Assembly (NCBI GenBank): GCA_964538405.1
Contig: CAZIET010000002.1
Span: 1 to 37,551, forward strand
Direction of reading: 5' to 3'
Length of the DNA: 37,551 nt
Origin: Candidatus Woesearchaeota archaeon
GTDB lineage: Archaea > Nanobdellota > Nanobdellia > Pacearchaeales > GW2011-AR1
The notes below the pieces were generated by a model that worked only from the letters and a program-made list of their open reading frames with translations, was not told the origin of the DNA and made no database searches. The position numbers and the translations under genes were made by a program. Shown here one piece after another: positions 1-8,066 of this stretch. The number at the start of each line of letters is the position of its first letter. The stretch's first letter is position 1.

Positions 1-27
1 AATACCAATTCTTAGTAATAATGTAAA

Positions 28-315
28 ATGAAAAAGATATTTTATACACCTCATTTAAAATTAAGATTAAATGTTAGAAAATTTCCCGAAAATTATCCAA
101 GATTAGTCTATAAAAATCCCGAGATGAAATTTTTTGACAATCTGGAGAAAAATAAAATAGCTGTAAAAAGACTTAAATATGGCAATGGCATTAGAAATAT
201 TATGATAGCTTATGAAGAAAATAAGGACAAAATCAGCATAATAACGATTCATCCGATTTCGGACGAAAAAATAATAAACAGAACCCTGAGTGGGAGATGG
301 ACAGAAGATGAATAA
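28..315 (+). CDS. DUF4258-like small toxin candidate
   Basis: 95 aa. Size and the C-terminal ...ISIITIHPISD strand pattern resemble DUF4258. It overlaps the downstream DUF2283-like gene by 8 nt, a typical TA pair layout. Confidence 0.5.
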   Translation: MKKIFYTPHLKLRLNVRKFPENYPRLVYKNPEMKFFDNLEKNKIAVKRLKYGNGIRNIMIAYEENKDKISIITIHPISDEKIINRTLSGRWTEDE

Positions 316-505
316 AAAATATAACTATGATGCAGAATCAGATTCCCTTTTTATTAACCTTAAGGAAGGAGAAGAGGAGAGCTTTGAAGAAGTTGCTCCC
401 GGAATAAACATGGAGCTTGATAAAGATGGAGGGATTATAGGGATAGAAATTCTTAAGGCATCCCGTTTTATTAAGGATTTAAGGAAAGAGAATTTACCTG
501 TTTAA
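308..505 (+). CDS. DUF2283-like antitoxin candidate
   Basis: YNYDAESDSLFINL ... GGIIGIEILKAS matches the YD-x-E-x-D-x-L-x-I ... GIEIL hallmark of DUF2283. The ATG at 308 (overlapping the upstream stop) is preferred to the track start at 290. Confidence 0.65.
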   Translation: MNKKYNYDAESDSLFINLKEGEEESFEEVAPGINMELDKDGGIIGIEILKASRFIKDLRKENLPV

Positions 506-614
506 AAGGCAGAAATTCATTGAAAATTTAACAATTGAAAACCAAAATCTAAAAAATGAATTGGCAACATTGAAAAAATCCCTGTACAATCTTGGAGCAA
601 CTGAGTGGTGTTAG
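504..614 (+). repeat. Cassette-boundary element copy 1 (5'-truncated, most divergent)
   Basis: It starts at the stop codon of the preceding gene. The in-frame reading is KRQKFIENLTIENQNLKNELATLKKSLYNLGATEWC-stop (tag 612-614), with no start codon. The 3' flank aaatcaaatta is identical to that of copy 6. Confidence 0.85.
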
Positions 615-675
615 AAATCAAATTAATCTAGCATAAATTCCACAATAAATTTATATAATTCTACTCTTAACTTAA

Positions 676-1278
676 ATGATGGAGAGTGGAAAAGGATATA
701 TTCTTGAAGGGGATACAATAGTGATAAATAGGGATTTGACGGGTCTTGATATGTTCCTGAAAAGTTTTCTTAACATCCTGAAAAAGCATTCTGATTATCT
801 TGTTGTAAGTGGGTATGTAAGCATCTCAACAGGAAGGACAAGAGGAACAGAGGATATTGATGTCCTTGTGCCGGCCATAGAAAAAGGGAAATTCTCTAAT
901 TTGTTCCATGATCTGCAAAAGAACGGCTTCTGGTGCTATCAAGGAGACGCAATAGGAGAAGTTTATCCATACATCAAAAATATGGACAGCATCAGATTTG
1001 CCAAAACCAATGAGATGTTTCCAAACATAGAATTCATCCCAATCAATAAATTAAGGAAGGCAAAATATTTTGAGTTTACACATCCCCAGAATGCAAAAGT
1101 AAAGGATTTTGAATTCAAAATTCCACCAATTGAATTTGAGATACTATACAAAGAAATAATCTTGAAAGGAAAGAAAGACATTGAAGATGCCCAACATCTA
1201 AGGACATTTTTTTCAGATATGTTAAAAAAAGAAAGATTTAAAGAATATGAAAAAATAATAAGGGAAGAGTTAAAATGA
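676..1278 (+). CDS. Nucleotidyltransferase-fold protein (MNT/AbiEii-like TA component candidate)
   Basis: VVSGYVSISTGRTRGTEDIDVLV has the G[SG]...DxD signature of minimal NTases. An AT-rich TATA-like aaatttatataatt lies about 25 nt upstream of the ATG, suggesting a leaderless transcript. Confidence 0.55.
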   Translation: MMESGKGYILEGDTIVINRDLTGLDMFLKSFLNILKKHSDYLVVSGYVSISTGRTRGTEDIDVLVPAIEKGKFSNLFHDLQKNGFWCYQGDAIGEVYPYIKNMDSIRFAKTNEMFPNIEFIPINKLRKAKYFEFTHPQNAKVKDFEFKIPPIEFEILYKEIILKGKKDIEDAQHLRTFFSDMLKKERFKEYEKIIREELK

Positions 1279-1484
1279 AACCTATGAATAATTTGGATTA
1301 TGTTAAGGTGTATTCCAAGAAAATGAGACTTGATAAGAGTTTGTTTGATCAGCAAAAAAGGCTTATTGAAGATCAATTAAAATCCAGTTCATCTTTGTTT
1401 AGAGAAATGTTTAAAAATAAGGATTTTAAACTGAACGCGAGAAAATATCTGAAAAGTGTTGGGTTAATAAAAACCAAGATCTAA
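1275..1484 (+). CDS. Small helical protein, partner of the NTase-fold gene
   Basis: 69 aa with an ATGA stop/start overlap with the upstream gene. No family recognised. Confidence 0.4.
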   Translation: MKPMNNLDYVKVYSKKMRLDKSLFDQQKRLIEDQLKSSSSLFREMFKNKDFKLNARKYLKSVGLIKTKI

Positions 1485-1546
1485 AAAACGACAATTTTGC
1501 AATGAAACAATCCCTGTGCAATCTTGGAGCAACTGAGTGGTGCTGA
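1466..1546 (+). repeat. Cassette-boundary element copy 2 (A-type, 5'-truncated)
   Basis: In-frame reading NKNQDLKNDNFAMKQSLCNLGATEWC-stop (tga 1544-1546). The last 48 nt are identical to copy 4. It overlaps the final 19 nt of ORF 1275..1484 in another frame. Confidence 0.85.
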
Positions 1547-1562
1547 ATTGAGTTTAAAGGAA

Positions 1563-1922
1563 TTACTCTTTAATGCGAAATCCAAAAGAGGAAACAATGA
1601 AAAGTTTACCTTTAAACTCTGCTGGTTTAACTTTATCAAACAATTTTAAAAGAGATAAAAAGAGCACATCAATTTTTGGAGGATGTATGTCCATGAAAAT
1701 TATACCTGGGTGTTCTTTTGGAGGAAATAACCTCCTGTTAATGAAATGTTTGTCAAAAGTCAGCATTATCCTTGATTTTTCTTTTGCTATTTTTGAGATT
1801 TGTCTGTCTGTTGAACCTAAAGGGACAATATTAACATTAAATCCTTTCTGCCTTAACAATTCAGTTAGCTTGGCCGGGACGTTTTCATCAGAAAGAAGGT
1901 TTGGCTTATCGGAATAAAACAT
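1563..1922 (-). CDS. DUF5615-like PIN-fold toxin candidate
   Basis: LLSDENVP ... IMLTFDKHF ... GIIFMDIHP parallels the paralog at 2603..2959 (FLDANIP ... ILVTKDLDF ... GVIILRL). It overlaps the DUF433 gene by 17 nt. Confidence 0.6.
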   Translation of the reverse strand: MFYSDKPNLLSDENVPAKLTELLRQKGFNVNIVPLGSTDRQISKIAKEKSRIMLTFDKHFINRRLFPPKEHPGIIFMDIHPPKIDVLFLSLLKLFDKVKPAEFKGKLFIVSSFGFRIKE

Positions 1923-2142
1923 ATTTTTCGTCCTCTACAAGTTTGGAGGCATGGCTCAAAACAGATAAAACAGCTTTCCTACTAATCTGTGGAAAATAAT
2001 CTTTTATAATCTCATCAACAGTTACCCCACCTGCAAGCAACTCCAATACTTGCCAAATCATAATCCTTGTTCCCTTAAATACGGGTTTTCCCTCACAGAC
2101 TTCACTATCTGCAACAATATATTCATTTATTTCTACTCTCAT
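1906..2142 (-). CDS. DUF433 antitoxin-like protein
   Basis: CEGKPVFKGTRIMIWQVLELLAGGVTVDEIIKDY matches the G-K-P-x-I-x-G-T-R-I ... G-x-S-x-E-E-I signature of DUF433. Confidence 0.75.
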   Translation of the reverse strand: MRVEINEYIVADSEVCEGKPVFKGTRIMIWQVLELLAGGVTVDEIIKDYFPQISRKAVLSVLSHASKLVEDEKYVLFR

Positions 2143-2179
2143 AAAATAATAATATTGCGGAACTATTTAAATTTTTGTA

Positions 2180-2336
2180 ATGTCTTTTCTACAAAATCCT
2201 CCAAGAACAGCAAAAATTCATTAAAAATCTTACAATAAAAAACAAAGATTTGAAATTAAACATCACAATTTTAATGAAAGACAATGCTGCAATGAAACAA
2301 TCTTTATGTAATCTTGGAGCGAGTGAGTGGTGCTAG
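2180..2336 (+). repeat. Cassette-boundary element copy 3 (B-type, with a 21-nt in-frame insertion)
   Basis: In-frame part 2202-2336: QEQQKFIKNLTIKNKDLK[LNITILM]KDNAAMKQSLCNLGASEWC-stop (tag). The conserved ATG at 2180 is one nucleotide out of frame with it. Confidence 0.85.
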
Positions 2337-2349
2337 AAAAGCTTAAATA
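2337..2349 (+). promoter_or_regulatory. BRE/TATA-like box carried by the 3' flank of B-type repeat copies
   Basis: aaaagcttaaata directly follows the repeat stop codon. The same 13-mer follows copy 5. It lies about 25 nt upstream of the ATG at 2371, spacing that fits a leaderless archaeal transcript. Confidence 0.45.
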
Positions 2350-2364
2350 TTCTAAGAGCGTTTA

Positions 2365-2601
2365 GTGAATATGGGAAATATTATTGTGAATGAAAAAATA
2401 AGGCACGGAAAACCGGTAATAAAAGGAACAAGGGTAACTGTGGATGAAATATTAGGGGCATTAATAGGTGGAATGTCTTATGAAGAGATAGAGCGAGAAT
2501 ATGGGGTAATAAAAGAGGACATAATTGCAACAATAGAATACGCAGCTTCTTTAATTAAGGGTGAAGAAGTGCACAAGTTCAAGGATAAATTACCTGTCTA
2601 A
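2365..2601 (+). CDS. DUF433 antitoxin-like protein
   Basis: RHGKPVIKGTRVTVDEILGALIGGMSYEEIEREY is the DUF433 signature. The likely true start is the ATG at 2371 (the track start is GTG). Confidence 0.75.
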   Translation: MNMGNIIVNEKIRHGKPVIKGTRVTVDEILGALIGGMSYEEIEREYGVIKEDIIATIEYAASLIKGEEVHKFKDKLPV

Positions 2602-2602
2602 A

Positions 2603-2959
2603 ATGAAGTTTTTCCTTGATGCAAATATACCTAACTCTTCAACTGGTATTTTCAAAGAACTTAATTATGACGTCCAACATGCAAGAGATATTGGCATGGC
2701 TAATTCTTTAGATAGTGAAATAATTAATTATTCTACAAAAAACAAGCGAATTTTGGTTACTAAGGATTTAGATTTTGGCAACATACTAAATTACCCAGTA
2801 AAATCGCATGTAGGAGTTATAATTTTAAGACTTCCTTTTTATTACAATGCAAAACAAATCAATAGGGTTTTACTAAATTTCCTCATGATAGTTAAAGAAA
2901 AAGAAATTAAAAATTCTGTTACTATTTTAGAAATTGGGAGATATAGGACACGAAAATGA
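2603..2959 (+). CDS. DUF5615-like PIN-fold toxin candidate
   Basis: MKFFLDANIPNSS ... ILVTKDLDFGN ... GVIILRL. An ATG at 2603 just after the DUF433 stop is preferred to the track start at 2561. Confidence 0.6.
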   Translation: MKFFLDANIPNSSTGIFKELNYDVQHARDIGMANSLDSEIINYSTKNKRILVTKDLDFGNILNYPVKSHVGVIILRLPFYYNAKQINRVLLNFLMIVKEKEIKNSVTILEIGRYRTRK

Positions 2960-3094
2960 ATGCGTCCGTTTCGACAAATTCAAGAACAGCAAAAATTCAT
3001 TGAAAATCTTACAATAGAAAACCAGAATTTGAAAAAAGACAATGCTGCAATGAAACAATCCCTGTGCAATCTTGGAGCAACTGAGTGGTGCTGA
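2960..3094 (+). CDS. Intact 44-aa coiled-coil peptide ORF, which is cassette-boundary element copy 4 (A-type)
   Basis: The ATG at 2960 abuts the TGA of the upstream gene (tgaatg). Product: MRPFRQIQEQQKFIENLTIENQNLKKDNAAMKQSLCNLGATEWC-stop. It is below the ORF-track size cutoff. Synonymous-biased divergence among copies supports it as coding. Confidence 0.6.
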   Translation: MRPFRQIQEQQKFIENLTIENQNLKKDNAAMKQSLCNLGATEWC

Positions 3095-3098
3095 GAAA

Positions 3099-3515
3099 TT
3101 ATAAACTTTCAAAAGTATCTAATAGCTCCCTTGGAGAAATTATCCTGACCCTATTCTGCTTTTTGAGGCCCTTATCCCCTGAGAATATTGGGCACTTTAA
3201 CTTTAACGCAAGCGCCAGATAAGGTGCATCCTTAAAATTTAGTTTAAATGCCTCTTGCAATTTATCGGCAAACTCTGAAGAATGGACTACTACAATTTGC
3301 TCTTTTATGAAAGATAGTATCTCCAAAACATCTCTTTTTGGCAATTTTGTTTCATTTAGAATTCTTGTCATTTTGGAATCAAGTTCGGAAAACATAAATT
3401 CGGGAGATACAAATTCAAATTTTCTGAACAATTTATTTTTCTCAAATATCTCGAAACTATTGCCCCTATTTACAAGGGCTGAAAAGATCACATTCACATC
3501 AACTACGATCAGCAT
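3099..3515 (-). CDS. PIN-domain protein (VapC-like toxin candidate)
   Basis: MLIVVDVNVIFSAL ... DAPYLALALKLKCPIFSGDKGL shows the acidic residues in the positions expected of PIN. It is a paralog of 4216..4611. Confidence 0.7.
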   Translation of the reverse strand: MLIVVDVNVIFSALVNRGNSFEIFEKNKLFRKFEFVSPEFMFSELDSKMTRILNETKLPKRDVLEILSFIKEQIVVVHSSEFADKLQEAFKLNFKDAPYLALALKLKCPIFSGDKGLKKQNRVRIISPRELLDTFESL

Positions 3516-3527
3516 TTATACCCATCC

Positions 3528-3758
3528 TTATGACTTTGATAATCGCTCGTATCTTCTTGCAAGGGAAAGATTTATTTCATCAGACAATTCATCAGCTTTT
3601 TCTTCTGTTAATTTTGACTTGGAAACATTCTGCTTTGCTCGTGCTATTCTCTCTAATTCTTCGTTTATTTTCCTTGCTATAACTAACTGCCAGTTTATTT
3701 TTTTAGACATGGCAAGTTCTTTCAGTTCATCAGGTATCTTTACTCTTATCTCTACCAT
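3528..3758 (-). CDS. Small antitoxin candidate upstream of PIN gene
   Basis: 76 aa. An N-terminal VKIPDELKE strand followed by helices is RHH/CopG-like. It ends 12 nt before the PIN gene start. Confidence 0.45.
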   Translation of the reverse strand: MVEIRVKIPDELKELAMSKKINWQLVIARKINEELERIARAKQNVSKSKLTEEKADELSDEINLSLARRYERLSKS

Positions 3759-3796
3759 GTGGAGTTCAAGCCTAAAAACTATATAAATCTTTTCTT

Positions 3797-3950
3797 AATG
3801 CTACGACAGGTTTGCTCCTGTTTTGACGGAAGCTATACAGGAACAGCAGCAATTCATTGAAAATTTAACAATTGAAAATCAAGATTTGAAAAATGATAAT
3901 GCTGCAATGAAACAATCTTTATGTAATCTTGGAGCGAGTGAGTGGTGCTA
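3797..3950 (+). repeat. Cassette-boundary element copy 5 (B-type, longest 5' extension)
   Basis: In-frame 3798-3950: CYDRFAPVLTEAIQEQQQFIENLTIENQDLKNDNAAMKQSLCNLGASEWC-stop (tag). The ATG at 3797 is one nt out of frame. About 66 nt are identical to copy 3, including the flank aaaagcttaaata. Confidence 0.85.
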
Positions 3951-3963
3951 GAAAAGCTTAAAT
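3951..3963 (+). promoter_or_regulatory. BRE/TATA-like box carried by the 3' flank of B-type repeat copies
   Basis: aaaagcttaaata lies about 25 nt upstream of the ATG at 3986. It is identical to 2337-2349. Confidence 0.45.
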
Positions 3964-3985
3964 AAAAGCAGACTTATGATTAATC

Positions 3986-4219
3986 ATGGAAACAATTATT
4001 AAGATTCCGAAAGAACTAGAAACTGACTTAAGGAGGTTTGTTCATGAGCTTGGGTTTAGTGGAGACTCTGAGTTTGTTGAGGAAGCTGTAAAGGATAAAG
4101 TTCTGGAGTTAAAAAGGAAGGAATTTTTTAAAGTCAGCGACAAAATTGCACAGGCACTTAACGGAAAAGGAATTAATCACAGAGAAATGCTGGAAGATTT
4201 TGAAAAATCTAGAGAATGA
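3986..4219 (+). CDS. Small antitoxin candidate (RHH/CopG-like)
   Basis: 77 aa with an N-terminal IIKIPKELETDL strand followed by helices. ATGA overlap with the downstream PIN gene. Confidence 0.5.
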   Translation: METIIKIPKELETDLRRFVHELGFSGDSEFVEEAVKDKVLELKRKEFFKVSDKIAQALNGKGINHREMLEDFEKSRE

Positions 4220-4611
4220 AAATCAAGATTGCAGTGGATGCGACACCAATTGTTTCTGCGTTAATAGGTGGTGTGAGTAGAAGTGTTTTATTTAACCGCA
4301 GATTTGAATTTATCTCAACAGAATATACTTTTGAAGAAGTAAAAAAATATACTGGAATAATATCCAAAAAATCAGGGGTTAGTGCAGATGAAGTTAGAAA
4401 GGCATTAAACTTTCTTCCAATCAGGGTATATCCAAAAAAGCACTATAAAAAAGATATTCAAAAAGCCAATAAAATTATCGGTAAAATAGACAAAAAAGAT
4501 GCTGATATCTTAGCTTTAGGCCTTAAAGAAAAATGCCATATTTGGAGTGAAGATAAAGATTTCAGGAACAATAAAGAAATAATGTTAATAAGAACTAAAG
4601 ATTTAATCTGA
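4216..4611 (+). CDS. PIN-domain protein (VapC-like toxin candidate)
   Basis: KIAVDATPIVSAL ... DADILALGLKEKCHIWSEDKDF. It has the same family pattern as 3099..3515. Confidence 0.7.
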   Translation: MKIKIAVDATPIVSALIGGVSRSVLFNRRFEFISTEYTFEEVKKYTGIISKKSGVSADEVRKALNFLPIRVYPKKHYKKDIQKANKIIGKIDKKDADILALGLKEKCHIWSEDKDFRNNKEIMLIRTKDLI

Positions 4612-4674
4612 ATATTAAAAATAATCTGGGATAAGGATGGAAAAGAATAAAGAAATAACATAAATAACTTTGCG

Positions 4675-4734
4675 AACGACAATCCTGCAATGAAACAATC
4701 TTTATGCCAATTGGGAGCAGCTGAATGGTGCTAG
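4675..4734 (+). repeat. Cassette-boundary element copy 6 (shortest; defines the common core)
   Basis: In-frame NDNPAMKQSLCQLGAAEWC-stop (tag 4732-4734), followed by aaatcaaatta as in copy 1. It is the last copy before core-type genes. Confidence 0.8.
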
Positions 4735-4803
4735 AAATCAAATTAGTTTGGATTGATTATTATAATAGAAAACCTTTTTATTCTTCCTTTATTTAATTAT
4801 TGA

Positions 4804-5880
4804 ATGAAAAGGGCGTGTATAATTTTGTTTTTGATTTTTCTTCCATTAGTGGATGCAGATGTTGTTTCTGTAAATTCAGGGGGAAGTTCTGGGGTCGTTG
4901 TAAGCTCTAATTCAATTATAGAAGGGTTTTTTACCAACTTATCTTTATGCGGAAATTCTTACACTGAAATAGGAGAGCAATGCGATGACGGAAACACAAA
5001 TAACGGAGACGGATGTTCAAGTTCTTGTTTGACCGAAGCAACTACCACTACTACAACAGGTGCTGATGCTGGGGGCGGGGGAGGTGGAAGTGGCGGAAGT
5101 GGTTCATCTTCACCATTAATTACTGCAAAAGACCTATTTGTTGATCCTCCAGAGTTGAGCATAATTGTGGTAAAAGGGGTGGAAGAACACACAGAAATAA
5201 TTTTTATTAACAAAGGTGATCTTCCCCTGCAAATTGCAATGGAAATTAGCGGTGATGACATAAAAAGTGTGTTGACAAGTGAAGAAAACCTGTTCTCACT
5301 TAATCCTGGGCAGCAAAAAGTTCTGATTTTAAAAGTCAATGTGCAGTCTGAGGAACTTCTTACTGGGAAAATAATAGTAAAGTATTCCGGATTTACGAAA
5401 GAAATTCCTGTTGTAATAGCGCCCCAATCGGAAAATTTTCTTTTTGATATATCTGTTTTTTTGGGAAGCGCGTTTAAGAAAATAATTGCCGGAAACAAGC
5501 TTGATGCCCAATTTAATTTATTGGAAGTTAATGTAAAAGAAAAAGTAGATGTTACTGCTACATATGTCATAAAAGATTTTGACGGGAACAAGCATTACGA
5601 GTCAAGTGAAACTTTCTTTGTGCTGGGAGAAAAGACTTATTATAAGGAGTTTCCTACTGAAACGCTGCCTGCCGGAAGGTATGTTCTGGGATTTGAAATT
5701 GTTTATCCCCAGGCCTTTGCAGTTTCATCGGCTACTTTCGAGGTTGTTGATCCATTGAAATTTAATTACAAGTTTTTGATTATAGGGATAACAATTCTTG
5801 GGACAGTGGTTGTTTTATGGTTGGCAAAAAGAATTTTTTTCAGGAATGCTGATGAAAAACAGCAAGGTTTAAATGGTTAA
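4804..5880 (+). CDS. Surface protein: signal peptide, Cys-rich repeat, T/G/S linker, two beta-rich domains, C-terminal TM anchor
   Basis: The N-terminal hydrophobic segment is MKRACIILFLIFLPLV. CGNSYTEIGEQCDDGNTNNGDGCSSSC matches the Cys-rich repeat pattern C-x-x-G-E-x-C-D-D-G-N-x-x-x-G-D-G-C. The linker is TTTTTGADAGGGGGGSGGSGSS. The C-terminal helix is FLIIGITILGTVVVLWL followed by basic residues. Confidence 0.7.
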   Translation: MKRACIILFLIFLPLVDADVVSVNSGGSSGVVVSSNSIIEGFFTNLSLCGNSYTEIGEQCDDGNTNNGDGCSSSCLTEATTTTTTGADAGGGGGGSGGSGSSSPLITAKDLFVDPPELSIIVVKGVEEHTEIIFINKGDLPLQIAMEISGDDIKSVLTSEENLFSLNPGQQKVLILKVNVQSEELLTGKIIVKYSGFTKEIPVVIAPQSENFLFDISVFLGSAFKKIIAGNKLDAQFNLLEVNVKEKVDVTATYVIKDFDGNKHYESSETFFVLGEKTYYKEFPTETLPAGRYVLGFEIVYPQAFAVSSATFEVVDPLKFNYKFLIIGITILGTVVVLWLAKRIFFRNADEKQQGLNG

Positions 5881-5925: not shown

Positions 5926-6462
5926 ATGTATCACATGATACAAAAATGTAGCCTAATTGCTGTTCTTGAAGTGTTTTTTAAAGAGCCTACTTCTATACAT
6001 TTTGTAAGAGAGATAGGAAGAAAAATCAGCTTAGCGCAGACATCTGTTAGAAACCATATAAAAGAACTTGAAAAAAACGGCCTTGTTGTGAGGCAGGAAT
6101 CAAAACCTTTCGATGGGTTGGTTGCAAATAGGGAAAATGAAAAATTTATTTTTTATAAACGGGTCTACAATATGCACTCTCTTTGTGATCTAAAAGATTC
6201 AATTGTTCAATTAATGCATCCAAGAGCGATAATCGTTTTTGGTTCTTATCAGAGAGGAGAGGATATGGAGAAGAGCGACATAGACATTCTTGTCTTGTCA
6301 AGGGTCAAGAAAGAAATAAATCTCAAAAAATTCGAGAAATTGTTGAATAGAAAAATAAATATCAATTTTGTGAATAATTTAAAGAATTTAGATCTTCCTT
6401 TAAGGATTAATATTTTGAGCGGACTGACATTATATGGGGGGATAAATGAGGGAGATATTTAA
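5926..6462 (+). CDS. wHTH + minimal nucleotidyltransferase (MNT) protein
   Basis: An N-terminal winged-helix-like segment is followed by GSYQRGEDMEKSDIDILV (GS-x10-DxD). Confidence 0.7.
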   Translation: MYHMIQKCSLIAVLEVFFKEPTSIHFVREIGRKISLAQTSVRNHIKELEKNGLVVRQESKPFDGLVANRENEKFIFYKRVYNMHSLCDLKDSIVQLMHPRAIIVFGSYQRGEDMEKSDIDILVLSRVKKEINLKKFEKLLNRKININFVNNLKNLDLPLRINILSGLTLYGGINEGDI

Positions 6463-6847
6463 AATAAGCAAGGACCTCATTAGGGCAAAGGACTTATACA
6501 AAACTGCCAAGGATAGATTATATGAAATAATTCCCCTCTTCCCAAAAGATAAGTCTTATAAAATTATTGAAGAGTATTATGAGATTATGGTTCAGCTAAT
6601 AACATCAATTATGTATTCAGATGGTTACAAAACCTTAAGCCATACGGGATTAATCCAATATTTAGCTACAAATTATACTGAATTTAGCAGGAATGAATTA
6701 AACACGATTGACATTTTGAGAAAATTGAGGCATGGAATAGTTTATTATGGGAAACAAGCGGAGAAAGAATTTCTTCTTAACCACGAGGATTCAGTAAAAG
6801 AACTCATAGACAAATTAATTAAAATTATAGAATTTAAGATAAAATAA
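6446..6847 (+). CDS. HEPN-like helical partner of the MNT gene (putative)
   Basis: The 133-aa sequence looks all-helical. RKLRHGIVYYG resembles the R-x(n)-H HEPN motif, though the spacing is short. It overlaps the MNT gene by 17 nt. Confidence 0.45.
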   Translation: MREIFKISKDLIRAKDLYKTAKDRLYEIIPLFPKDKSYKIIEEYYEIMVQLITSIMYSDGYKTLSHTGLIQYLATNYTEFSRNELNTIDILRKLRHGIVYYGKQAEKEFLLNHEDSVKELIDKLIKIIEFKIK

Positions 6848-6896
6848 CAACATTTAAATGTTTAAAAATGGCTTTTATAATAAAGAGGGACTTTGG

Positions 6897-8066
6897 ATGA
6901 TAAACAAAAAAGGGATAGCAGTAATTCTTTTAATATTTCTTGCCTGCTTTCTGATTCAAGCACAGGCCATAGAGGTAAAGAGTGTTTTGCTCAAGTTTTC
7001 CCTGCATAAAGGAGAGTCAATAACGAAGAATTTTAGCATATCCAGTATTGATGGGGGAGAAATAAAGCTGCAGCTTAAAGGAACCACTGAAGGGGTAAGA
7101 TTGATGGATAATGAAGTTGTGCTTGATAGCGGGGAGGAAAAAAATGTGGAGATATCATTTGATGCAGAAACAATCAAAGAGGGAGTCTATGTTGGACACA
7201 TAGAGCTTACTAAAGGAAAAGAACTACAGATTATTCCCGTAATATTTGAAGTTGAGTCAAAGGATGTTTTCTTTGATGCAAATCTTGAAATTCCCGTGAA
7301 ATATTCAGAAATAATGCCTGGTGAAAAAATACTTGTGCAGCTGAATGTTTTTGATCTTAATGCGGGAACAAAACGGGGTTTAAACTCCTCTTCCCTTGAT
7401 GTTGAGTACACTGTTCATGATTTGAACGGAAATAACATCATCTCGGAGCATGAGAATTTTGTTGTTGACGGCCAGGTTACTGTTTCTAAGACCATGAATT
7501 TTCCGAAAGACATCAAAGAAGGACAATATGTTTTTAGTGCAGTCATAAAGTACAGGTCTTCTGTTGGAATTGCAAGCGAGTTGTTTACAATTTCAAAAAC
7601 TTCATCTGTAAATTTTAACGGATTGAATTTTCCAGATACCGGATTGATCCTTATTTTTATATCATTCATCTTTCTTACGTTGATACTTTTCTTTGTCTAC
7701 ATAATAAGAGACAGGGACAAGATGTTTCTTGAGCTAAGGCAATACAACAATGATGAGCTTGCTAGGCAAAAGGAATTGCTGAATGAGCAGGCAAAGATAG
7801 TAGGCTTGAAGAGTGGAGTAAGCAAAGAAAAAGTAAAAAAAGAGATAAAAGAAAAAATTGAAAAAATAAAGAAAAAACAAAGACAAAGGGTTGATGAATA
7901 CAGGAAACTAAAGAAAGATCTGACGCCTGCGCAAATGAAGGCGAAGCTTGAGGAATGGAAGAGGAAAGGGTACAATACAACACTCATGGAATTAAAGCTC
8001 AGAAACCTAAGCACGAATGAAATGAAAAGCATAATGCAAAAGTGGAAGGAAAAATACAAATCCTAG
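6897..8066 (+). CDS. Membrane protein: signal peptide, two beta-rich ectodomains, TM helix, K/E-rich cytoplasmic coiled-coil tail; paralog of 4804..5880
   Basis: MINKKGIAVILLIFLACFLIQAQA is the signal peptide (ATG at 6897 preferred to 6858). The ectodomain aligns by eye with 4804..5880 (FDANLEIP.../FDISVFLG..., ...EGQYVFSAVIKY/...AGRYVLGFEIVY). The TM helix is LILIFISFIFLTLILFFVYII. The tail is KEKVKKEIKEKIEKIKKKQRQR. Confidence 0.65.
   Translation: MINKKGIAVILLIFLACFLIQAQAIEVKSVLLKFSLHKGESITKNFSISSIDGGEIKLQLKGTTEGVRLMDNEVVLDSGEEKNVEISFDAETIKEGVYVGHIELTKGKELQIIPVIFEVESKDVFFDANLEIPVKYSEIMPGEKILVQLNVFDLNAGTKRGLNSSSLDVEYTVHDLNGNNIISEHENFVVDGQVTVSKTMNFPKDIKEGQYVFSAVIKYRSSVGIASELFTISKTSSVNFNGLNFPDTGLILIFISFIFLTLILFFVYIIRDRDKMFLELRQYNNDELARQKELLNEQAKIVGLKSGVSKEKVKKEIKEKIEKIKKKQRQRVDEYRKLKKDLTPAQMKAKLEEWKRKGYNTTLMELKLRNLSTNEMKSIMQKWKEKYKS

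Follow-up and report, generated by a model that had tools for sequence, protein, structure and literature searches.

In staphylococci, SCC elements sit at the 3' end of rlmH (orfX), where they form composite tandem arrays and are served by Ccr serine recombinases with a fixed core of about 15-18 bp. At rhs and cdiA loci, displaced orphan 3' pieces carry variable toxin tips together with immunity genes, and the tandem elements found at archaeal tRNA genes bring integrases and target these tRNA genes. The locus analysed here shares traits with each of them. As in SCC, tandem cassettes lie between direct repeats of the terminal codons of a host gene, with the host gene intact; here, however, there is no fixed core, the fragment length is variable, no dedicated recombinase was found, and the cassettes are single toxin-antitoxin (TA) operons of about 0.8 kb. 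As at rhs and cdiA loci, an intact gene would be followed by 5'-truncated 3' fragments that come from recombination in a conserved stretch, each with its own partner genes, but in our case the displaced piece is the conserved tail and the variable cargo consists of unrelated TA operons. With the elements at tRNA genes, the locus has in common that partial copies of the target 3' end mark successive insertion borders, whereas the target is here protein coding and no integrase remnants were seen.

Integrons also come close. Archaeal and TA-rich chromosomal integrons (PMC9668308) likewise hold small cassettes between repeats of the same orientation; the present locus differs in that neither an attC hairpin nor IntI was found, the repeats derive from coding sequence and have variable limits, and some junctions are free of repeats. 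In the literature that we searched, no description was found of TA cassettes lying between the ends of a fibre gene. We propose, with a probability of roughly 75%, that the repeats of this locus are displaced, 5'-truncated 3' ends of a large gene for a tail-fibre-like surface protein, left behind by serial recombination of TA cassettes.

Results

Six direct repeats alternate with toxin-antitoxin operons at the start of the contig

The window, that is, the whole stretch of DNA that was analysed, is an entire contig of 37,551 nt with 34% G+C, taken from the MAG of a Candidatus Pacearchaeota archaeon. Its positions 1-4750 contain six direct copies of a repeat, all on the + strand (Table 1). A 24-nt core pattern matched five of them, against 0.00 matches expected from shuffled sequences, and the sixth, more diverged copy was detected by a separate repeat search. 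The description given in the earlier note held up at this level: each of the six copies stays open in a single frame until its stop, the ATG of the 44-aa ORF of copy 4 abuts the upstream TGA, and the insertion in copy 3 is of 21 nt. The C-terminal end shared by all copies reads ...SL[C/Y][N/Q]LGA[T/S/A]EWC*, and the TGA ahead of copy 4 is that of the DUF5615 ORF. The internal ATG that would give a 14-mer in five copies was also recovered, namely in copies 2-6, copy 1 having TTG at this place.

The borders of the copies are uneven. The 5' limit of homology varies copy by copy, and the 3' limit is the stop codon plus about 0-16 nt; copies 1 and 6 have 11 nt past the stop in common. A start codon that covers the full unit is found in copy 4 alone. 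Copies 2 and 6 are decayed in their 5' parts; that of copy 2 is overlapped by the 69-aa ORF of a cassette, and copy 6 contains an in-frame TAA 27 codons ahead of its stop. Neighbouring copies are 758-932 nt apart, and each interval holds a single operon, which may face either way.

Table 1. Repeat copies and neighbouring genes in positions 1-5880 of the window
Feature	Position	Strand	Remarks
95-aa ORF and DUF2283 protein	28..505	+	contig start 27 nt upstream
Copy 1	506..625	+	stop 612-614; homology begins ..QKFIENL; first Cys replaced by Tyr
Overlapping 200-aa and 69-aa ORFs	676..1484	+	no family match
Copy 2	1438..1557	+	stop 1544-1546; clear homology from ~1466 (NQDLKNDN..)
DUF5615 (PIN-like) and DUF433	1563..2142	-	opposite to the repeats
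Copy 3	2190..2349	+	stop 2334-2336; 7-codon insertion 2256-2276
DUF433 and DUF5615	2365..2959	+	cassette
Copy 4	2960..3101	+	44-aa ATG ORF 2960-3094, stop 3092-3094, and few shared post-stop bases
PIN_2 (VapC-like) and 76-aa VapB/RHH-like antitoxin	3099..3758	-	cassette
Copy 5	3799..3964	+	longest, ~50 codons (..APVLTEAIQEQQQFIENL..); stop 3949-3951; followed by BRE/TATA-like 13 nt
77-aa RHH-like protein and PIN_2	3986..4611	+	cassette
Copy 6	4642..4748	+	last and most diverged; stop 4732-4734; clear homology limited to final 19 codons (4675-4734)
358-aa secreted protein	4804..5880	+	conserved downstream neighbour; Cys-rich repeat

Apart from the pair of 200-aa and 69-aa ORFs, the gene content of the intervals is that of type II TA systems, with DUF433 plus DUF5615 found twice, PIN_2 plus an RHH/VapB-like partner found twice, and DUF2283. 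The two cassettes of DUF433 and DUF5615 stand head to head around copy 3; as their DUF433 proteins differ markedly, they do not represent a recent inverted duplication. The remaining contig is an ordinary archaeal chromosome, with genes for aIF2-gamma, aIF5B, Kae1, gyrase, aspartate carbamoyltransferase and a YchF-like GTPase.

We also looked at the sequence that follows the stop codons. The motif AAAAGCTTAAATA, which resembles BRE/TATA, lies directly 3' of the stop of copy 3 and is also present at copy 5. In its general form, AAAAG(C/T)TTAAATA, it directly follows the stop of copy 3 (2337-2349), of copy 5 (3952-3964) and of the intact genes of two related loci (L001 and L002; related contigs are numbered with the letter L), about 25 nt ahead of the next start codon, and it resembles an archaeal BRE/TATA promoter. 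This predicted promoter would drive the next cassette.

The 44-aa peptide corresponds to the end of Peptidase_S74 fibre proteins

The earlier note had not recognised the peptide as a known family, and a word-indexed search of 5.8 billion proteins with the 44-mer indeed gave no match beyond itself; an exact look-up of contigs containing the 44-mer was likewise empty. It took a DNA pattern obtained by back-translation, as well as an exhaustive HMM search, to bring up relatives. The DNA pattern, SL[CY]xLGAxEWC followed by a stop, was found at five loci in genomes of Woesearchaeota and Pacearchaeota. At four of the five it ends ORFs (864, >317, >1252 and 156 aa), and the last 140-155 residues of these ORFs match Peptidase_S74 (PF13884, "chaperone of endosialidase") above the Pfam cutoff. 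An HMM built from the six window copies alone gave 23 significant matches among 1.84 billion representative proteins, nearly all at the extreme C-terminus and in proteins of up to 5130 aa; in proteins of 271-5130 aa, the profile aligns to the final 30-43 residues. PF13884 was present in 6 of the 10 larger HMM matches scanned, about 100 residues upstream of the tail. Fibre proteins carrying the tail range from 130 to >5000 aa, and in the full-length relatives PF13884 scores 22.3-47.9 bits (cutoff 22) at about 60-100 residues ahead of the tail.

On sequence grounds, the peptide is the C-terminal coiled-coil helix plus the SLCxLGAxEWC tail of Peptidase_S74 fibre proteins of Pacearchaeota and Woesearchaeota. 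The family can now be named, as the tail follows the intramolecular-chaperone core of Peptidase_S74 in large DPANN fibre proteins. Of the three origins that the earlier note had listed, the homologues, which are ends of very long proteins, bear out the first, in which the repeat is the tail end of a larger upstream-encoded protein. The heptad pattern of a coiled coil was confirmed too, with a positions I7, I14, N21, N28 and L35 and d positions Q10, L17, L24, M31 and L38 of the 44-mer. Full-length genes naturally differ from one another by indels of seven residues; therefore, the heptad inserted in copy 3 would be tolerable in a working fibre gene.

The Peptidase_S74 domain is the one of phage endosialidase, of tail fibres and of MYRF. 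The terminal helix is alike and the full-length relatives carry PF13884, but the window copies are without the catalytic Ser/Lys part and without everything upstream of it. In particular, the Ser...Lys auto-cleavage motif, invariant (S2, K7) in nine aligned full-length relatives, is missing from all six copies. Moreover, the 44-mer and a 50-mer from the window gave no match to PF13884, a model that spans the first 58 residues of the domain, which are absent from the fragments. This lack of a match, together with the homology to such genes, argues that the copies are derived fragments and not family members themselves. In a search against solved structures, a single sequence was too weak, and a profile of the archaeal domain plus tail succeeded: it matched a phage long tail fibre (6f45_A, 8.6e-7) and MYRF (7dc3_A, 5e-5), and both alignments extend into the terminal helix of these structures.

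The SLCxLGAxEWC end, with its two Cys seven residues apart, appears to be special to this DPANN subfamily; no description of this tail was found in the literature searched, and viral contigs gave no match. We also observed three small proteins of 70-92 aa (P0024, P0025, which is the ORF of L013 ending at 464, and P0027) that carry a tail of the form ..MK(K/Q)SLCKLGA.EWC on N-terminal parts unlike S74, one of them with a signal peptide. Either they are fusions of fragments, or they indicate that the tail forms a module of its own.

The position of the array is that of a fibre-gene end

We compared the surroundings of the array with those of intact fibre genes. In L009, an intact fibre gene is followed, after a spacer of 63 nt, by a homologue of the 358-aa secreted protein and by a GTPase 70% identical to that of the window. 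The neighbourhood is similar in L002, L003 and L004, with extra genes interposed, and in all four loci the homologue of the 358-aa protein follows either an intact fibre gene or an array. In the window, the end of copy 6 lies 70 nt upstream of the 358-aa gene. This spacing and the order of neighbours in the relatives place the array at the end of the fibre gene, with copy 6 in the ancestral position.

A tblastn search with the S74 domain found no full-length S74 gene in the window. The intact parent gene is expected immediately past the left edge of the contig; the layout of an intact gene plus fragments is known from relatives only (L010, and L001 with L004). A second assembly, 99.987% identical (L015), starts at position 800 of the window, and a Logan contig (L016) starts at 4567, so that both break inside the array. 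The repeats systematically break short-read assemblies at this locus, as seen in two independent assemblies of the same population. An identical contig is also present in SRR12113430.

Similar fragments lie between TA and defence cassettes in related genomes

Similar arrays of fragments, placed between TA or defence cassettes, were found in at least 5 other contigs (L004, L010, L014, L007 and L019). In L004, which belongs to the same MAG as the intact gene of L001, three fragments are distributed among HicAB, RelE-like, NYN and AbrB-PIN cassettes. L010 holds on one contig an intact gene end and then four fragments among HicAB, AbrB-PIN and DUF4143-ATPase cassettes, with an AbiE pair in the first interval. 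L014 shows three fragments among RelE- and MazF-type pairs, and the fragments of L019 lie among PIN_2/RHH and HicAB pairs. The shortest fragment has 8 nt and the longest about 320 nt (about 106 codons); every one of them extends to the stop-codon region.

A direct comparison of junctions was possible between close relatives. In L007, a gene end 100% identical to that of L001 is joined directly, at GTGCTGAGA, to a cassette that is preceded by others in L004, and L004 keeps at this place only an 8-nt remnant, TGCTGAGA. This shows that cassette content differs between close relatives. Some cassette junctions of the related loci are without a fragment, so fragments are not obligatory for the gain of a cassette.

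In L005, a 76-aa ORF downstream of the S74 gene (1152-1382, - strand) is a fragment of another tail variant (..VMKGQQQMIINQS..KDCITNSKDFKEMQKCVGK); displacement therefore also affects other tail types. In L017 (2-2593), a gap of 70 nt separates an 800-aa ORF, which ends at 2404, from a downstream 39-aa fragment ORF with the tail (P0007). This may be a fibre gene whose end was cut off by a frameshift or an insertion.

Copies differ as coding sequences do, and fragments are decayed

The earlier note had read the differences between the copies as purifying selection on the repeat. Its counts were reproduced: the 8 substitutions between the A and B types comprise 5 synonymous ones (in 4 codons), 1 Thr/Ser change and 2 in the stop codon, and copy 6 adds the synonymous changes ctt to ttg and gag to gaa. 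We extended the comparison to copies 4 and 5, which over 33 codons (99 nt) show 15 nucleotide differences, 10 of them at third positions, and 4 amino acid changes. Random substitution gave a mean of 10.9 amino acid changes, and 0 of 20,000 simulations were as low as the 4 observed. By the Nei-Gojobori method, the same pair has Sd 10 over S 17.5 and Nd 5 over N 81.5, hence a pN/pS of 0.11. Its synonymous divergence (pS 0.57) is high for copies within one genome, which implies that the donors must be old alleles, paralogues or other species.

The codon-respecting drift thus stands, and the part of the claim that placed the selection on the copies themselves does not. Copy 1 has lost a Cys that is invariant across all full-length genes. 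In related arrays, the fragments of L010 carry one 1-nt insertion, one 29-nt insertion and one deleted stop codon, the copy of L004 at 5859 has a nonsense change (TGC to TGA), and copies of L010 and L014 are changed at positions that are invariant in full-length genes. The array of L004 has no ATG for the 14-mer (IKKSLC...). The expectation that further copies would be free of frame-breaking indels in the 3' core, on which the coding interpretation had been made to depend, therefore failed, the insertions of L010 being such lesions. The synonymous bias among the copies is best explained by the divergence of each as the working end of a full-length gene; in this reading, the drift was acquired while the copies ended fibre genes in another lineage or in a paralogue, and not through selection on a 44-aa peptide. 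Across genomes, the synonymous sites of the final ten codons and the stop codon vary freely. To judge by these alignments, the conserved entity is the protein and not a DNA site, and the fragments appear not to be under selection in place.

We also noticed that the 29-nt insertion of L010 (12239-12267) contains a small palindrome (GCCAGCAA..TTGCTGG) and is flanked within the fragment by ..GCTAAGGAG and GAATGGTGCTGA; this insertion may represent a tiny mobile or hairpin element.

Discussion

Proposed serial recombination at a conserved gene end

Considering the homology with fibre genes, the position and the recurrence of the arrays, the recombination mosaic within the repeats and the decay of the fragments, we infer the following order of events. 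The conserved end of the fibre gene would serve as recombination anchor. Incoming DNA would bring a TA operon together with a gene end, its stop codon and a short promoter-like stretch, and a crossover with the resident gene inside the conserved coding tail would keep the fibre gene intact and push the remainder of the previous end downstream. Repetition of this step would produce an array, in which copy 6, next to the conserved downstream gene, would be the oldest and most decayed copy. Homologous recombination, either Campbell-type or one-sided, could carry out such events. The direct repeats are probably retained by the TA operons, as the looping out of a cassette would be punished by its toxin; this stabilising role is suggested by the TA cassettes of the Vibrio superintegron (references cited in PMC9668308).

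Exchange within the repeat has left a clear trace. When variants on the left (-84 to -76 before the stop) are combined with those on the right (-31 to -11), all four combinations occur, in copies 4, 3, 5 and 1, a mosaic that implies crossovers or gene conversion within the repeat. Homologous recombination is favoured over a site-specific process because the limits are variable, the breakpoints scattered and the DNA not conserved between genomes, and because no recombinase was found. The sharp 3' limit near the stop and the 8 nt left in L004 would also fit a short site-specific core, and the sharp L007/L004 junction near the stop keeps a dedicated system as an outside chance.

Other readings of the repeats

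The alternative that we consider most seriously, although unlikely, is a platform comparable to integrons or SCC, in which the gene end is a true attachment site, a dedicated recombinase is encoded elsewhere, and small TA cassettes are inserted and excised at a short core at the stop codon or just past it. The constant orientation of the repeats whatever that of the cassettes, the restriction of cassettes to single operons of about 0.75-0.93 kb, the L007/L004 junction falling exactly at GTGCTGAGA with just 8 nt retained in L004, and the preservation of the stop-codon region in every fragment all agree with such a platform, and TA-rich cassette arrays are known in archaeal integrons (PMC9668308). 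Against it, folding of single-stranded DNA of three copies, on both strands, gave z scores from -1.32 to +1.14, that is, no hairpin; between genomes, the last 10 codons are not conserved as DNA; both repeat limits vary, by 0-16 nt after the stop and by 8 to about 320 nt before it; breakpoints within the repeat are scattered, as the four-gamete mosaic reveals; and the fragment is absent from some cassette junctions. Scans of the window and of the flanking DNA of 14 related loci also gave no integrase (IntI included) or resolvase, among the 25 of 36 families listed in one of these scans and with the parent-gene side of the array off the contig. In its most developed form, the platform would make the end of the S74 gene the attachment site of an unrecognised DPANN system of cassette capture, which would use coding-sequence sites instead of attC, place in each copy a candidate promoter that serves the cassette after it, and rely on a recombinase or on the host recombination machinery; this is again improbable in our opinion. 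Should such a dedicated mechanism prove true, it would be a cassette platform without attC sites.

Displacement of gene ends by recombination also accounts better for the repeat than a product of its own would. The earlier note had suggested that the copies form a small peptide gene family (44-mer or 14-mer) or serve the TA cassettes as a third component, with purifying selection acting on them in place; this is very unlikely. The open frame of all six copies and their strong synonymous bias speak for it, one protein collection annotates the ATG ORF of copy 4 as a gene, and the same tail occurs on other N-terminal parts in P0024, P0025 and P0027. But the full unit has its own start in copy 4 alone and the 5' limits are unequal; copy 1 is without the invariant Cys and copy 6 has an upstream in-frame stop; related fragments show frameshifts, a nonsense codon and a lost stop, those of L004 being also without ATG; and the homologues are ends of very long proteins. 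All this speaks against such a view, and so do fragments that adjoin unrelated TA families as well as non-TA cassettes (a DUF4143 ATPase, an NYN protein). As for copy 4, a complete ATG ORF abutting the upstream stop, incidental translation may occur. Least credible of all, and in our judgement close to excluded, is a structured RNA or DNA element (a terminator, an sRNA or an attC-like hairpin) that mimics coding conservation. The element is intergenic, repeated and of constant orientation, as such a structure could be, but its folding energies equal those of shuffled sequences, no Rfam match was obtained at E<=1, and the substitutions track codon positions. The covarying base pairs that the earlier note had named as an alternative to coding are almost absent, the consensus fold of the six copies having -3.0 kcal/mol with a covariation term of -0.19.

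We also rejected a diversity-generating retroelement, whose template and variable repeats lie at the 3' end of a gene, as the differences are synonymous and not adenine-specific and Pfam scans revealed no reverse transcriptase. Silent cassettes for antigenic variation were discarded as well, as such cassettes would repeat the variable part of the gene, whereas here its conserved part is repeated.

Significance and other features of the locus

With the displacement of fibre-gene ends as the preferred reading, the 44-aa "peptide" is removed as a lead: it is a gene fragment whose apparent purifying selection was inherited from the parent gene, and the unit is probably a recombination scar and not a new peptide family. 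Archaea with tiny genomes and an episymbiotic life would stack TA and defence operons at the end of one gene for a cell-surface fibre. The displaced ends would constitute a fossil record of earlier alleles of the fibre gene, which could be used to trace the turnover of a likely host-attachment protein.

Further genes around the array are shared with related loci. A nucleotidyltransferase gene recurs in the variable region between the fibre gene and the YchF-like GTPase (window 5926-6847; L002 4047-4568; L003 1233-2206; L005 98-1023). A small partner, putatively HEPN-like by position only, lies next to this gene or overlaps it in the window, L003 and L005. The 358-aa secreted protein combines a Cys-rich acidic repeat (TIGR02232) with a poly-Thr/Gly linker. 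It matches the same region of L002 and L003 as a second secreted protein of the window (402 aa, 6858-8066), and on account of this common match the two look like paralogues.
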